Sequence record: NC_028957.1
DNA from: Escherichia phage vB_EcoM_VR26
Direction: 5' to 3' (one strand)
DNA length: 64,000 nt
The first letter of the stretch is position 1. Each line of letters starts with the position of its first letter. The translations under genes and the position numbers were made by a program. The notes beneath the pieces were generated by a model. That model was not told the origin of the DNA. It saw only the letters and a list, made by a program, of their open reading frames with translations, and ran no database searches. This document shows positions 1,244 through 5,475 of this stretch, piece after piece.

Positions 1244-1345
1244 TCATTATAAATTATACCCTCTATACTTTCTTTCTCTGAAAGGAATTAATCGTATCGG
1301 AAGGTCTAGAACCATTATACCACAATTTTATTTGAAGCAAAAAGG

Positions 1346-1609
1346 TCAGAATTTTACATACAGCATTGGTTTGTTATCTTGCCAGTCATAATTCCAGGTA
1401 AATGATGTAAATTTTTCTGCCCGCAGAAAATCAGATATCTTTGTGCGGTTTCCCTCTTCATACTCTTTTTCAGAAACTGCCATATTAACAGCATCTTTGC
1501 CATTCTCAGCAGCGGCAATAGCCACTTTGCGAAATATAACAATAAAGTCATTTGCAACTTTATCTTGTGATTCTTTAGCCATTTGACGTAGTTCTTCTGC
1601 GAATGTCAT
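1346..1609 (-). CDS. hypothetical protein (24.2-like by position)
   Basis: 87-aa ORF, overlaps next gene by 4 nt (translational coupling), position equivalent to T4 24.2. Confidence 0.55.
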   Translation of the reverse strand: MTFAEELRQMAKESQDKVANDFIVIFRKVAIAAAENGKDAVNMAVSEKEYEEGNRTKISDFLRAEKFTSFTWNYDWQDNKPMLYVKF

Positions 1610-1809
1610 TTCTTCACCTTTTTGTTAAACAACCGCTTGCGGTATACGATTTTCTCTCGTGACTTGAACTTTTCTTTAGCTTGTTCAACATCAACCCATG
1701 CCTTTGCCATTTCTTTAGCGGTCCCGCCTAATACCTTGGCGATTTCAATAAATGTCATACCAGTTTCATGCAGGAAATGTACTTTAACCTTATTCATAAC
1801 CATTCTCAT
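1606..1809 (-). CDS. small helix-turn-helix-like protein (24.3-like by position)
   Basis: 67-aa ORF; segment MTFIEIAKVLGGTAKEMAKAW resembles an HTH DNA-binding motif; basic C-terminus. Confidence 0.5.
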   Translation of the reverse strand: MRMVMNKVKVHFLHETGMTFIEIAKVLGGTAKEMAKAWVDVEQAKEKFKSREKIVYRKRLFNKKVKK

Positions 1810-1946
1810 GTTGAGTTAGTGAAGCTATCTTAACATGGAATTTTTAACTTGTAAACAGGAGTTTTATGCCAGATATTCTTGAACGTAAAGATTTACTTTA
1901 CAACCGTCACTACCTTAATAAATATTAAATTAATAACGGAGGATTT

Positions 1947-3473
1947 ATGACACAAACTACAGGTGAAAAAGAAGGCGTATTTTACGGTTATTCTCTTTAT
2001 GATTTGAATAAAGAAAAACTAATAACTTTTGATGAATTACTTACGGGTATTCAAGGAGAGCCCGGAGAAAATGGCGATATTGGACCAAAAGGCCCTATTG
2101 GTTTAACAGGTCCTCAAGGACCGAAAGGTGATATCGGGTCAAAAGGTATTAAAGGTGATACAGGTCCTCAAGGTATTCAAGGGCCCGCTGGCCCACAAGG
2201 TCCTCAGGGAGAAAAGGGAGTCCAAGGTTTAGCTGGAGTCCAAGGCATTCAAGGACCAGTCGGCCACCAAGGAGTGAAAGGTGATACCGGCCCTCAAGGT
2301 ATTCAAGGACCGAAAGGTGATACAGGAGCACAAGGCCCACAAGGTGACAAAGGCGAAATGGGTCCGGTGGGTCCGGCTGGTCTAACATGGAAAGGAACAT
2401 GGGACGCTGATGTAGAGTATTCTATAAATGAGGCTGTCGGATATGGTGGTTCTTTATATTTCGCCAAAACAAAAGTTCCTAATGGCGAAATACCAACACC
2501 GACTTCTAACTATTGGGGTGTTTTGGCTACCGAGGGTCCACAAGGTCCACAAGGTCAACAAGGTCTTAAAGGTGATACCGGTCCTCAAGGTATTCAAGGA
2601 CCTGTAGGGCCTGTAGGGCCGCAGGGTATTCAGGGACCAAGAGGACTTCAAGGGTCAGAAGGTGAAATAGGACCGCGGGGTATTCAAGGGCTAAAAGGCG
2701 AAACTGGGCCCGCTGGTCCACAGGGTATTCAAGGGCTAAAAGGCGAGGTGGGTGCTCAGGGTCCTTCTGGTTCTCCTGGACTTACAGGACCAGAAGGACC
2801 TCGTGGGTTAACAGGCGAAGCTGGAGCTCAAGGACCTCGTGGTGCTATAGGTCCTATCGGTTTAACAGGTCCTATCGGTTTAACGGGTCCTCAAGGTATT
2901 CAAGGTCCGAAAGGTGATACAGGTCCTCAAGGCTTACAAGGTCCTCAAGGCTTACGAGGTATTCAAGGAGCTCCTGGAGTAAAAGGAGAAGCGGGTGCAC
3001 AAGGTCCGAAAGGTGATACAGGAGCACAAGGTCCTATTGGTTTAACTGGACCTAAAGGTGATACAGGCCCGAGCCCTTATACTGTTTATAATTATTCTAA
3101 TGTTGCAACTGGTTATGCTGAAATGGTTATGCCTGGTGTGTCATCAAACACAGTATTTAGACTTCGTTCAGTTGGAACTAATATAGAATATAGTGTTCTA
3201 AGTAAAGGCGGAGCTAATAGATATGTAGATTGGCACTTTTCAATTCCAAGTGTTTCCGGCAATACAGTAAGTACTAATAGCGGAACTAATACATTAACTC
3301 CTACAGGTAATTTTACTATTGTGGCGACCGCTTATAATGGACTAAGGGGATTTACAATAACATTATGCGAGTGGGGTTCAAGAGCTATTGTTGATATCAC
3401 TGTTTATCATCATGGGCGTTCGGGAGACACAACCAAAGCTGTGGCTATTCGTATGACTACTACAAAATACTAA
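1947..3473 (+). CDS. collagen-like triple-helix repeat fibre protein with C-terminal globular domain
   Basis: 508 aa; two long uninterrupted Gly-X-Y runs (~nt 2052-2390 and 2534-3072) separated by a W/Y-rich knot (LTWKGTWDADVEYSINEAVGYGGSLYFAK…NYWGVLATEG); GGAGG Shine-Dalgarno 8 nt upstream; not part of the T4 gene set as recalled. Confidence 0.8.
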   Translation: MTQTTGEKEGVFYGYSLYDLNKEKLITFDELLTGIQGEPGENGDIGPKGPIGLTGPQGPKGDIGSKGIKGDTGPQGIQGPAGPQGPQGEKGVQGLAGVQGIQGPVGHQGVKGDTGPQGIQGPKGDTGAQGPQGDKGEMGPVGPAGLTWKGTWDADVEYSINEAVGYGGSLYFAKTKVPNGEIPTPTSNYWGVLATEGPQGPQGQQGLKGDTGPQGIQGPVGPVGPQGIQGPRGLQGSEGEIGPRGIQGLKGETGPAGPQGIQGLKGEVGAQGPSGSPGLTGPEGPRGLTGEAGAQGPRGAIGPIGLTGPIGLTGPQGIQGPKGDTGPQGLQGPQGLRGIQGAPGVKGEAGAQGPKGDTGAQGPIGLTGPKGDTGPSPYTVYNYSNVATGYAEMVMPGVSSNTVFRLRSVGTNIEYSVLSKGGANRYVDWHFSIPSVSGNTVSTNSGTNTLTPTGNFTIVATAYNGLRGFTITLCEWGSRAIVDITVYHHGRSGDTTKAVAIRMTTTKY

Positions 3474-3482
3474 GGAGCTTTA

Positions 3483-4346
3483 ATGGAACCGGTTAAAGCT
3501 GTGTTAGAGCCTGATGTAATAGATGTGGAATATGGTAATACATACTCGGCTACTGTAACTCTGTCTCCTATAGAAAATATTCCAGATGGTTCCGTGATAA
3601 GATATGATTGGGTTGTTAATAACAAGTTCGTTGGTACGGGTGAAGCTACTCGTACCACCCAACCATCTCAGACCGGAAATTATGTATTATCATGTAGAGT
3701 ATTCATTACTCCGCCTAATGAAAATACTGTAATGGTAACAACTAATAAATCATATGGGTATGTATATAAAAATTCCGATACAAGTCCAGTAGATGCAGAA
3801 ATATTATATGATAACAAGATATACCAAGTAGGAAGCAAAGTTAGATTATTAGCCGTTGCCAATAACCCAGATACCAACTTTGTTAAAGGTATTATATGGA
3901 AGGATGCTGATGGTAAGATAATAGGTATAGGTCGGGAATATATCCATACAATGCAATCAGAGTATGATATAGTTCGAGCTAAAGTTACAATGGATTCGCC
4001 TATAAGAGATGAATTTAGTAAGAACTTTACTATACATTTGTACGCTATAAATGTTCAAGAAGGAACATGTATAAGATATATTCATCCTTTAGACCACAGG
4101 GATGCAGGATTTATCTGGTGTGGTTGGTGGGTTATGGATGAAATCCAACGAGCGATAAAACTTGGGCTGGATTGGAAAAATCCAAAAGAGCTAGATTTAA
4201 ATTACAAGTGTGATTTAGAGACATTAGCGTTATTGCTCAAGACATATCCTGAAGCCGAAGTTCAAGAATCAAGACACGGATATATAATAACCAGACTACA
4301 AATTGAGACTGGCGGAATATATGAAAAACCATATGAAGTAAAATAA
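3483..4346 (+). CDS. Hoc-like capsid decoration protein paralogue (Ig-like domains + Hoc capsid-binding domain)
   Basis: 287 aa; C-terminus YIHPLDHRDAGFIWCGWWVMDEIQ…DW…YPEAEVQESRHGYIITRLQIETGGIY aligns with the C-terminal capsid-binding domain of the canonical Hoc encoded at 4372-5475; AAGGAG SD; start 9 nt after collagen-like stop. Confidence 0.75.
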   Translation: MEPVKAVLEPDVIDVEYGNTYSATVTLSPIENIPDGSVIRYDWVVNNKFVGTGEATRTTQPSQTGNYVLSCRVFITPPNENTVMVTTNKSYGYVYKNSDTSPVDAEILYDNKIYQVGSKVRLLAVANNPDTNFVKGIIWKDADGKIIGIGREYIHTMQSEYDIVRAKVTMDSPIRDEFSKNFTIHLYAINVQEGTCIRYIHPLDHRDAGFIWCGWWVMDEIQRAIKLGLDWKNPKELDLNYKCDLETLALLLKTYPEAEVQESRHGYIITRLQIETGGIYEKPYEVK

Positions 4347-4349
4347 AAA

Positions 4350-4367
4350 GGGCCGCAAGGCCCTTTT
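4350..4367. terminator. bidirectional hairpin terminator (gggcc-gcaa-ggccc + T run) between convergent hoc-like and hoc
   Basis: GC stem-loop flanked by A run (upstream) and T run (downstream), so usable on both strands. Confidence 0.55.
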
Positions 4368-4371
4368 ATCA

Positions 4372-5475
4372 TTAATAGACGTAATCGTATATAATACCAG
4401 CTTCCAATGCCGAACGGTGGACGATACGACCGTTACGAGATTCCTGTACATCAACTTCCGGGTAATCACTAAGCATTTTGGCTAATACCGCCAGATGACA
4501 ATAATATGGTGTATCCTCTTTAGTGGCTTTTTTCCAATCTGTACTTTCAGATGTTAATTTCTGAATAGCGTCCATAACCCACCAACCACACCAAATATAC
4601 GCAGTATTACGGACAGGAAGTGGATGTACATAAATTAAAGGACATTCTTCTGGAACAACAGGCTCTGCTTCTGTCACCGTAACAGACTTATTACCTGATT
4701 TAACTGAATTTGTAAAGCCTGTTTGTGATGCAGTAACTTCACAAGTATATGACTTCAAGCCTTCAGTGGATTCCGTTATTGCTCTTGTTGCTTCTGTTGA
4801 GTTGTCGTCCCATTTATATGCAAGAGTAGCGCCAGGAATAGCAGGGGACACAGAAGCTGTCAAATTGAATGGAACATCAACCGTTGCAGTAGACGGGCCT
4901 GAAATCTCAACAGTGAACTCAGGGAATGTATTGTTTTCGACCGTAACAACTACTGCATCAGGATTAATAACTTGGTTGTCATAATCTGCAGCAGAAATGG
5001 TAATTTGACAAGTTAAAGAAACCGGCCCTGCAACAGTAGCAGTACGAGTAATATCTTTAGTAATTTCACCAGTAGACCACAAATATGCTATTGTAGCTCC
5101 ACCAGGTTCACCTGTTACATTAGCCGAAGCGTTATATTCCTCGCCAACTTTAACGGTTGGAGTGGAAGTTGTTAATGTTGCAGTTGCAGACATAGTCTTG
5201 TTATTAACTGTAATAGTTGTTTGAGCCTCTGCCGTTTCAGGCTCTCCTTCTTCCGGCGTTGTGGTGGCAACAACTTTAATTACTTTTGAACCTGCTGGGC
5301 CAGCTGCAATATAATCCATAGTAGCAATAACAGAAGCTTGTGGAACCTCATCAACGGTCCATACAAAAGATTCGGTACCAGCGACAGCGGCTCCAGCCCC
5401 AGTAGCAGTAAAATTAGTTGTTGCACCTATAACCGCTGTAGGTGTTAAAGGGGCAATTGATACAGTATAAGCCAT
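4372..5475 (-). CDS. hoc: highly immunogenic outer capsid protein Hoc
   Basis: 367 aa; Ig-like repeat architecture and C-terminal YVHPLPVRNTAYIWCGWWVMDAIQK…YPEVDVQESRNGRIVHRSALEAGIIY match T4 Hoc as recalled. Confidence 0.9.
   Translation of the reverse strand: MAYTVSIAPLTPTAVIGATTNFTATGAGAAVAGTESFVWTVDEVPQASVIATMDYIAAGPAGSKVIKVVATTTPEEGEPETAEAQTTITVNNKTMSATATLTTSTPTVKVGEEYNASANVTGEPGGATIAYLWSTGEITKDITRTATVAGPVSLTCQITISAADYDNQVINPDAVVVTVENNTFPEFTVEISGPSTATVDVPFNLTASVSPAIPGATLAYKWDDNSTEATRAITESTEGLKSYTCEVTASQTGFTNSVKSGNKSVTVTEAEPVVPEECPLIYVHPLPVRNTAYIWCGWWVMDAIQKLTSESTDWKKATKEDTPYYCHLAVLAKMLSDYPEVDVQESRNGRIVHRSALEAGIIYDYVY

Follow-up and report, generated by a model that had tools for sequence, protein, structure and literature searches.

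A collagen-like fibre gene of phage vB_EcoM_VR26 is paired with a second Hoc-like gene and may encode an accessory head fibre

According to its published descriptions, gp12 of phage SPP1 is a trimeric collagen-like protein that is located on hexamer centres, is dispensable for assembly, and has been suggested to act in adhesion to the host or to surfaces (PMC5292684, PMC7602432). The side tail fibres EPclA-D of E. coli prophages form trimers of dumbbell shape, whose stalk is collagen and whose globular C-terminal domain mediates trimerisation (PMC3368898). Additionally, a cryo-EM preprint on phage phi24B showed that the DUF1737 domain binds the centres of capsid hexons (doi 10.64898/2026.04.10.717836).

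The window analysed here, a stretch of 64,000 nucleotides of Escherichia phage vB_EcoM_VR26 (NC_028957.1), comes from a Gaprivervirus and not from T4. It contains a real collagen-like fibre gene at 1947..3473 (+), an ORF of 508 aa with an ATG start, as described by an earlier reading made from the sequence alone (the sequence-only reading). From its N-terminus onwards, the protein consists of a peptide of 33 aa, a stretch of 38 Gly-X-Y triplets, an insert of 49 aa, a second stretch of 60 triplets and a C-terminal domain of 132 aa. When the full-length protein and its individual non-collagen parts were scanned against Pfam, only Collagen and a weak CBM match were returned. The strong ribosome-binding site proposed for the gene was found as the Shine-Dalgarno sequence GGAGG at 1938..1942 (+), 4 nt before the ATG. 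Located 22 nt 5′ of the ATG, a AATAAATA box (1917..1924, +) that is also present in VR7 and VR25 matches the T4 late-promoter box TATAAATA at seven of eight positions, from which a promoter function may be inferred. The placement of the gene on the late strand had also been put forward. This argument carries little weight, given that hoc and inh are encoded on the opposite strand and that an exact TATAAATA was not found 5′ of the collagen gene. The missing exact late promoter was counted against the head-fibre model presented below.

Collagen run 1 (2046..2387, +; aa 34-147) contains 38 uninterrupted Gly-X-Y triplets and collagen run 2 (2535..3074, +; aa 197-376) contains 60. These are the only runs of at least six triplets in the six frames of the whole window, in agreement with the two long runs proposed previously, although their total of 98 triplets falls short of the "more than 100" of that proposal. 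The match to Pfam Collagen (PF01391) reached 159.1 bits against a cut-off of 27.2; Pro occupies 39% of the X positions, and Gln, Lys and Thr dominate the Y positions. Judged from its sequence, the protein would form a homotrimeric triple helix; in a monomer model, the collagen parts had pLDDT values <50, as expected for a monomer. As triple helices, runs 1 and 2 would measure ~33 nm and ~51 nm, respectively, and the complete fibre would be roughly 85-90 nm long; the conversion of ~2.9 Å per residue used for EPclA-D (PMC3368898) leads to a comparable estimate.

The near-identical 20-25-nt repeats reported in the collagen DNA were recovered as the 20-mer GGTCCTCAAGGTATTCAAGG, present in three exact copies, or five with up to two mismatches, all within the ORF, where shuffled sequences give an expectation of 0. 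Tandem periodicities of 9, 18, 27 and 36 nt are also present in this DNA. The suggestion that such repeats drive length variation was borne out by the relatives of the gene. The VR25 orthologue is 99.2% identical at the protein level, except for one clean in-frame indel of 54 nt (18 aa) within run 2, after nt 3005, and the numbers of triplets in run 1 and run 2 differ among relatives (38/60, 38/66, 50/32, 36/47, 5/18 and 53/49).

The collagen helix is interrupted by a W/Y-rich "knot" of 49 aa (2388..2534, +; aa 148-196), whose quoted sequence we confirmed. Its supposed resemblance to a tail-fibre repeat was not supported, as neither Pfam Phage_fiber_2 nor any other tail-fibre repeat was matched; the knot is instead CBM5/12-like. 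A profile built from 33 homologous knots matched the chitin-binding domain of chitinase A1 (1ED7) with E=1.2e-6 over the full domain length, as well as chitinase, deacetylase and CBM chains, and 31 of the 33 knots matched PF02839 (best E=2.1e-6). Y14, P39 and W46 are invariant among the homologous knots, and AF2 predicted a small all-beta module with a pLDDT of ~90. Based on homology at the family level and on the conserved aromatic platform, the knot is classed as a CBM5/12-type carbohydrate-binding module. The alignment of the knot family with ChiA1 ChBD (1ED7) and ChiC (2D49) extends over all 45 aa of the domain, and the aromatic positions W, Y, Y and W are conserved. Unlike these domains, the knot sits inside a collagen helix, which would place three copies on each fibre, its carbohydrate ligand is putative, and the knot of the window taken alone lies below the PF02839 threshold (14.3 bits, cut-off 26.2, E=0.04). 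Genuine tail fibres can contain CBM5/12-like modules as well, for example the short tail fibre 8ke9 and the fibre of the F2 pyocin, which counts against a location on the head. In an alternative explanation, the protein would serve as an auxiliary fibre of the tail, baseplate or neck, with its N-terminus bound to a component of the tail or collar, and would extend the host range. In line with this alternative, the knot profile matched the solved tail-fibre chains 8ke9 (E=0.008), 25vf, 9rkv and 8fqc.

The globular C-terminal domain of about 130 aa that had been proposed corresponds to a non-collagen domain of 132 aa (nt 3075-3470; 3075..3473, +, with the stop codon), presumably a distal, exchangeable head that binds ligands and/or trimerises. 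It is confidently predicted to be a beta-sandwich, without a close solved relative. A word-indexed homologue search with this domain alone was empty, which we consider a sensitivity artefact because an exhaustive search and tblastn recovered relatives. A C1q/TNF-like trimer of the BclA type was ruled out by fold searches, in which the ten-strand jelly-roll with C1q/TNF topology was not found. The annotation of VR7 names a Bacillus cereus collagen protein as the nearest match.

The N-terminal 33 aa (1947..2045, +; MTQTTGEKEGVFYGYSLYDLNKEKLITFDELLT), here termed the N-box, presumably act as a virion-attachment and/or trimer-nucleating peptide. The N-box is 100% identical in VR5, VR7, VR25 and ESCO10, though the remainder of the protein differs; the N-box of Vequintavirinae has ~55% identity, and a related type-B form is present in JS10, dhabil and Cronus. 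Profile searches with the N-box gave no Pfam or PDB match, and its pLDDT in the monomer model was 33-41; given the lack of a recognisable fold and the low model confidence, it could be a mere trimerisation nucleus. One and the same C-terminal domain was found joined to three different N-terminal modules, each according to phage type, and members of a single phage group keep an unchanged N-box while the C-terminal domain is swapped. Because the N-terminal modules follow the phage type and the C-terminal domain is exchanged, the N-terminus would be the anchor and the C-terminus the distal end.

The most informative feature of the locus, missed by the sequence-only reading, is a co-oriented Hoc paralogue 9 nt downstream of the collagen gene. 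This paralogue, Hoc2 (3483..4346, +; 287 aa), is identical in sequence to the vB_EcoM_VR26 protein YP_009214031.1, and its gene is probably co-transcribed with the collagen gene. In a phmmer comparison, Hoc2 aligned with residues 121-376 of T4 Hoc (5vf3_Z) with E=3.2e-26, a region that covers the capsid-binding domain and contains the HPL..IWCGWWVMDEIQ..VQESRNGYI motifs; it also matched the Hoc-like family phrog_1149 (E=1e-57). By these similarities, Hoc2 is assigned as a true Hoc paralogue with a C-terminal capsid-binding domain. The canonical hoc gene (4372..5475, −; 367 aa), whose product shares 44% identity with Hoc2 over the last 105 aa only, is convergent with the collagen gene-hoc2 pair, and the GC-rich hairpin located between hoc2 and hoc (4346..4367) is likely a bidirectional terminator that closes the two-gene unit.

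The collagen gene and a co-oriented short Hoc-like gene were found together in all 13 T4-like genomes examined, which came from Gaprivervirus, Dhakavirus, Kanagawavirus and Roskildevirus, plus one metagenomic contig. The two genes are adjacent in 12 of them and separated in IME08. SP18 lacks both. In T4-like phages, the collagen gene occupies the interval from 24/24.3 to hoc/inh. The pair of Cronus and FBB1 is found at another place, directly after gene 24, and has therefore moved as a unit. Because the gene always travels with an extra hoc copy, a head location is more likely than a tail location. The sequence-only reading had proposed a trimeric head or tail fibre; that framing was fair, and the evidence favours the head. 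We thus regard the product as a trimeric collagen-like accessory virion fibre that is most likely, with modest confidence, a component of the head. Against this assignment, the hexamer centre of the T4 capsid is already occupied by Hoc.

The linkage to hoc2 allows more specific proposals. Tentatively, the two genes could constitute a mobile capsid-adhesin cassette in which Hoc2, or a site that it creates, docks the ~85-90 nm fibre. A rather unlikely variant is a receptor-adaptor cassette in which the fibre docks on Hoc2 as its dedicated adaptor and not on the major capsid protein. This variant would account for the strict co-occurrence of the two genes, their relocation as a unit and their intergenic gap of 9-30 nt in most genomes. 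It would also fit the observation that the capsid-binding-domain types of Hoc2 follow the N-box types across genera, type A occurring with RYIHPLDHRD..GWWVMDEI and type B with IYDNDLNAYLPYGGGRN..GWWVWDEI, and the case of KIT01, which retains the window-type N-box (97%) and Hoc2 (90-95%) and has a replaced collagen C-terminal domain. Nevertheless, linkage alone makes neighbouring genes co-vary, and the N-boxes of VR7 and the window are 100% identical, whereas the identity of their Hoc2 proteins is only 57% for the C-terminal domain and 32% for the Ig part. The separation of the two genes in IME08 and the awkward stoichiometry of a trimer on a monomeric Hoc also argue against such docking.

Homologues with the same N-box were identified in Vequintavirinae (A7_1 and CR3) between the genes for the major head protein and Neck1/minor head protein, and not among tail-fibre genes. 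The neighbours A71_111, A71_113 and CR3 gp009/010/012 showed no similarity to Hoc by phmmer; because the N-box occurs here without a Hoc-like neighbour, Hoc2 is not its universal partner, a result that speaks against docking on Hoc2 and, together with the different capsid of these phages, against the head reading. Drexlerviridae (AugustePiccard and L012) encode homologues that share the knot and the C-terminal domain; their genes are flanked by that of a "head decoration" GDSL esterase and that of the major capsid protein. The N-terminus of these homologues is DUF1737 (PF08410), which scored 32.9 bits in AugustePiccard, with a cut-off of 24; no Pfam match to this domain was obtained at E<=1 for the N-terminus of the window protein. 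The gene lies within the head-morphogenesis module in T4-like phages, Vequintavirinae and Drexlerviridae; such synteny can reflect shared mobility instead of shared function.

The auxiliary tail, baseplate or neck fibre introduced above is a reading that we consider unlikely. Its arguments, apart from the knot, are that the best PHROG matches and the RefSeq labels are tail fibre, that side tail fibres with a collagen shaft have been described (EPclA-D, PMC3368898; phi24B gp61), that the Vequintavirinae gene lies just 5′ of the Neck1 and tail-sheath genes, and the label carried by the ESCO10 copy. However, the "tail fiber" labels are inherited from collagen-repeat similarity and not from experiment, and the side-tail-fibre domains PfN, Pf2 (Phage_fiber_2) and PfC were not detected, Pfam assigning Collagen only. 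Moreover, every T4-like copy lies among head genes (23/24, hoc and inh), far from genes 34-38 and 9-12, and the Drexlerviridae homologues, with their capsid-binding DUF1737, are flanked by head decoration and major capsid genes.

The novelty implied by the sequence-only reading did not hold, since a gene at the same locus is annotated in JS10, VR7, VR5, VR25, KIT01 and other phages. The label is "collagen triple helix repeat domain protein" in VR7, and relatives (JS10, VR7 and VR25) are labelled "collagen triple helix repeat" or "tail fiber". The ESCO10 copy is annotated as "host specificity protein". The existence of the gene is thus already public, and what is new here is its genomic context. 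No functional study of the family was found in the literature, nor were proteomic, EM or genetic data for any member in the searchable literature. A link between collagen melting and the low-temperature phenotype of the VR phages was considered and dropped, as VR20 lacks the gene and its carriers JS10 and KIT01 are not known as low-temperature phages.

The rarity of the cassette among T4-like genomes, with ~18 distinct phages among >1000 matching records, could indicate that the protein is not a virion component at all, being either an accessory "moron" product, released by lysis or intracellular, or the product of a decaying, dispensable gene. Close relatives such as SP18 and VR20 manage without the cassette, and two copies look damaged, the N-box of IME08 being in a separate frame and the 3′ end of VR7 being frameshifted relative to VR5. 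We consider this explanation very improbable. The window carries an intact ORF of 508 codons with 98 uninterrupted triplets, a strong Shine-Dalgarno sequence and conserved N- and C-terminal domains; apart from the in-frame indel, the identity to VR25 is 99.2%. Additionally, Pfam revealed no signal peptide or enzymatic domain, and the gene is housed in head-gene modules in three phage families.

In the head-fibre model, one transcription unit would produce both the fibre and the short Hoc paralogue. The conserved 33-aa N-terminus would fix the fibre to the particle and/or nucleate the trimer, and the shaft would be built from collagen triple helices ~33 nm and ~51 nm long, with a node of three CBM5/12-like modules between them. 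At the distal end, a trimer of variable beta-sandwich domains would make up the tip. Both this tip and the CBM modules may bind glycans or other surface structures, providing the phage with an extra weak, reversible adhesin with a role comparable to that of Hoc. Recombination between near-identical Gly-X-Y-coding repeats would alter the length of the shaft, and recombination at the borders of the repeats would swap the tip.

If the cassette reading is true, a minority of T4-like phages bear head fibres that are long and variable in length and that carry three CBM5/12 lectin modules and an exchangeable tip; no such virion feature has been described for Straboviridae. Unrelated capsids would then display the same payload by means of N-terminal adaptors that can replace one another, namely the N-box in the case of myoviruses and DUF1737 in that of Drexlerviridae. 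Should the fibre be on the head, several phages of therapy collections (JS10, KIT01, dhabil, ABTNLsp5 and the VR series) would have a second, much longer capsid adhesin, which could affect retention in mucus or biofilms, pharmacokinetics and immunogenicity. A head location would also correct a systematic mis-annotation, as RefSeq and PHROGs spread "tail fiber protein" family-wide, and the chassis-specific N-terminal adaptor, adjustable collagen spacer and exchangeable tip would offer a ready scaffold for capsid display.

Compared with known systems, the fibre plausibly shares with T4 Hoc (5vf3) the non-essential adhesin role of BAM-type, Ig-like decoration proteins, although the collagen-like protein itself has neither an Ig-like domain nor the Hoc capsid-binding domain. 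The succession of a collagen stalk and a C-terminal domain of ~130 aa is common to this protein and to the BclA-type filaments of Bacillus. Like the E. coli prophage side tail fibres EPclA-D, the family is modular and recombining (PMC3368898); unlike them, which are defined by domains that they have in common with lambda Stf (PfN, PCoil, Pf2 and PfC), it has none of these detected here, and the gene of the window is surrounded by head genes and not by tail genes. The phi24B gp84 esterase, a DUF1737 decoration protein, likewise combines an N-terminal capsid-binding module with an exposed payload (bioRxiv 10.64898/2026.04.10.717836), whereas the window protein lacks DUF1737 and its 33-aa N-box is unrelated. 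As described, SPP1 gp12 is a precedent for the head fibre and is similar in being a phage-encoded, collagen-like, trimeric and head-associated protein, and the Drexlerviridae homologues directly precede the major capsid gene. By its descriptions, gp12 is small and bound at hexamer centres, with a collagen motif at the N-terminus and a C-terminus that is helical; in contrast, the window protein has 508 aa, 98 triplets in two runs, a CBM5/12 insert, a predicted beta-sandwich tip and a presumed N-terminal anchor.

The collagen gene was recovered where the sequence-only reading had placed it, as a 508-aa ORF at 1947-3473 (+) that starts with ATG and is preceded by a GGAGG ribosome-binding site at 1938-1942. 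By parsing its sequence on the (+) strand, we delimited an N-terminus of 33 aa before aa 34 (the N-box), a first collagen run (38 Gly-X-Y triplets without a break, aa 34-147), the knot, a non-collagen insert of 49 aa (aa 148-196), a second unbroken run of 60 triplets (aa 197-376), and a C-terminal domain of 132 aa after aa 376, for which about 130 aa had been estimated. The two runs sum to 98 triplets instead of the more than 100 claimed, and in whichever frame the 64-kb window is read, no other such run occurs. The Pfam Collagen model scored 159 bits (threshold 27), and at 0.286 nm per residue the runs, if triple-helical, would form helices of ~33 nm and ~51 nm. The initial observation stands with small corrections.

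Megablast matches of 97-98% identity assign the locus to the T4-related coliphages of the VR7/VR25 group (Gaprivervirus); its gene order is rnlB, 24.2, 24.3, collagen gene, Hoc-like gene, hoc, inh, uvsW. The 24.2 and 24.3 homologues lie at 1349-1809 (-), 24.3 being a DUF2774 protein (E=6e-29); this stretch is nearer to VR7 than to VR25, which indicates that the locus is mosaic. The novelty implied for the gene was not borne out: it is already annotated in VR7 (VR7ORF196w, 'collagen triple helix repeat domain protein'), JS10 ('tail fiber-like protein'), VR25, VR5, IME08, KIT01 and others. That it might be a widespread, characterised T-even gene held only as far as this annotation, since our full-text literature search found no paper studying it and its cassette with the adjacent Hoc paralogue, Hoc2, is rare (~18 distinct T4-like phages among >1000 T4-like records). 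The gene is real, correctly described, already annotated and uncharacterised.

Upstream of the collagen gene, a 20-codon mini-ORF (MPDILERKDLLYNRHYLNKY and a stop codon) occupies 1866-1928 (+). In KIT01, JS10 and dhabil, the collagen gene itself starts at this ATG (1866 in the window), with a shared 'aacaggag' RBS before it. An 81-nt insert present in VR7, VR25 and the window brings in AATAAATA together with a new GGAGG ahead of the present start. In VR7, a 127-nt 'intergenic' stretch lies 3' of VR7ORF196w (3497-3623 of the VR7 record, L001); read in another frame, it encodes the C-terminal 39 aa of its VR5 orthologue, which points to a frameshifted or mis-sequenced 3' end. In IME08 (record L017, ~3560-3770), an N-box of the related type B occupies a separate upstream frame and the annotated CDS begins at a non-ATG codon, so that this gene also looks frameshifted. 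The apparent frameshifts, at the 5' end in IME08 and the 3' end in VR7, suggest that the gene is dispensable in culture.

Recombination between near-identical repeats in the collagen-coding DNA had been proposed to drive length variation. The 20-mer quoted in support has three exact copies, and five when up to 2 mismatches are allowed, all of them within the collagen ORF (0 expected). A single in-frame 54-nt indel, which falls between repeated Gly-X-Y coding units of run 2, separates the protein from its VR25 orthologue; elsewhere the two are 99.2% identical. This indel and the differing run 1/run 2 triplet counts of relatives (VR7 50/32, Kosakonia 305 36/47, JS10 5/18, A7_1 53/49, AugustePiccard 37/29) support the proposal. 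The 33-aa N-box is fully conserved (100% identity) across VR5, VR7, VR25 and ESCO10, while unrelated domains take the place of the C-terminal domain in VR7/VR5, KIT01, dhabil/L009/Cronus and IME08. Additionally, a C-terminal domain of the window type (52-56% identity) was found behind three different N-termini: the same N-box in A7_1 (Vequintavirinae), a related, longer 'type B' N-box in JS10, and an unrelated 99-aa domain in Drexlerviridae (AugustePiccard, e4/1c). Based on these exchanges, the N-terminus appears to track the virion chassis, and the C-terminus would be an exchangeable payload. A chassis-bound N-terminus with a swappable C-terminus is what is typically seen when a protein attaches proximally and binds distally.

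The knot, originally likened to a tail-fibre repeat, gave only a weak Pfam match to CBM_5_12 when searched alone (E=0.04). Nevertheless, a profile of 33 homologous knots aligned along the entire chitin-binding domain of chitinase A1 (1ED7; E=1.2e-6) and also matched a range of CBMs from chitinases and deacetylases, and 31 of the 33 knots individually matched PF02839. The 1ED7 and PF02839 matches identify the knot as a CBM5/12-type module spliced into the collagen helix, of which a predicted trimer would carry three copies. The profile also matched, more weakly, chains of true tail fibres (8ke9, an F2 pyocin fibre), which shows that such modules serve in tail fibres too. The N-terminal 33 aa had no match in Pfam or PDB; in the full-length monomer model they are of low confidence, and the knot and C-terminal domain score ~90.

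The main new point of our analysis is the linkage to head modules and Hoc. Hoc2 (287 aa; 3483-4346 (+)) begins 9 nt downstream of the collagen gene on the same strand and matches residues 121-376 of T4 Hoc, including the capsid-binding domain (E=3e-26). Its product has the same sequence as the 'Hoc-like head decoration' protein of phage vB_EcoM_VR26, which makes the window almost certainly VR26. It converges on the canonical hoc (4372-5475 (-)), giving two Hoc genes in one genome, and a GC-rich hairpin at 4346-4367 closes both units. The two proteins are similar solely in the capsid-binding domain (44% over the last 105 aa) and should compete for the same hexamer-centre site. The synteny comparison of the 24-hoc interval was run on 13 T4-like genomes or contigs (the window, VR7, VR25, VR5, KIT01, JS10, dhabil, ABTNLsp5, IME08, Kosakonia 305, Cronus, FBB1 and one metagenomic contig). 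A short co-oriented Hoc-like gene accompanies the collagen gene in all 13 and is adjacent in 12, the sole exception being IME08, where rnlB and 24.3 intervene; Shigella phage SP18 (Gaprivervirus) lacks both. Kosakonia 305, Cronus and FBB1 have only the collagen-linked Hoc within the stretch examined. Two Erwinia phages, Cronus and FBB1, have the pair directly after gene 24 instead of 24.3, which indicates that it moved as a unit.

Outside Straboviridae, the homologue lies between the major head protein and Neck1/minor head protein genes in Vequintavirinae, and between 'head decoration' and major capsid protein genes in Drexlerviridae. Two to three genes upstream of the Vequintavirinae homologue, also between major head protein and neck genes, is a second, much larger protein (~1100-1270 aa; 1305-5105 in A7_1, L005; 1264-4545 in CR3, L021) in which many short collagen runs alternate with repeated small 'GDAYLI..W..VG' modules. 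A metagenomic contig (L008, 1322-3847) has two consecutive collagen-like genes a short way upstream of a PhiTE-type head-tail adaptor gene; the first of the two carries the window-form (type-A) N-box.

The product belongs to the phage collagen-like virion fibres; confidence that it is a virion fibre is high. The ORF is intact, with all 98 triplets, and sits in head modules, which makes a role outside the virion unlikely. A neck or tail location would agree with the 'tail fiber' label, but that label rests on collagen-repeat similarity, the Pfam scan found none of the PfN, Pf2 and PfC domains of Stf/EPcl proteins (PMC3368898), and the gene lies away from tail-fibre genes in every case; this location keeps a modest probability, lower than that of the head. 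The consistent head-module and Hoc linkage instead argues that the family is mislabelled as tail fibre. Location on the head is favoured with moderate confidence, at slightly better than even. Modules, module exchange and context together suggest a trimeric accessory fibre, expressed together with Hoc2, that would be mounted on the capsid by its N-terminus and carry a lectin-like node (the knot) and an exchangeable tip.

Hoc2 is the obvious candidate for a binding partner of the T4-type N-box: its capsid-binding-domain type tracks N-box type across genera, and KIT01 keeps both with a swapped tip. This co-variation could arise from linkage alone, and three objections count against the pairing: VR7 and the window have identical N-boxes with rather different Hoc2 proteins; no Hoc-like gene was found in N-box-bearing Vequintavirinae; and the N-box might instead be, in our own proposal, a foldon-like trimer nucleus.

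What our analysis adds is the CBM5/12 identification, a record of the indel and of swapped modules, and a consistent linkage to head modules and Hoc. In Drexlerviridae, whose homologues begin with DUF1737, the neighbouring 'putative head outer capsid protein' (phrog_9703 'head decoration') is a GDSL/SGNH esterase (AugustePiccard, L003, 4594-5883; L012, 4835-5917), paralleling the esterase decoration protein reported for phi24B, where a 2026 cryo-EM preprint describes DUF1737 as a capsid-binding domain on the hexon central pore (doi 10.64898/2026.04.10.717836). The proposed head fibre would act as a weak adhesin, as proposed for Hoc and for SPP1 gp12, which is likewise collagen-like and a known hexamer-centre binder (PMC5292684, PMC7602432).
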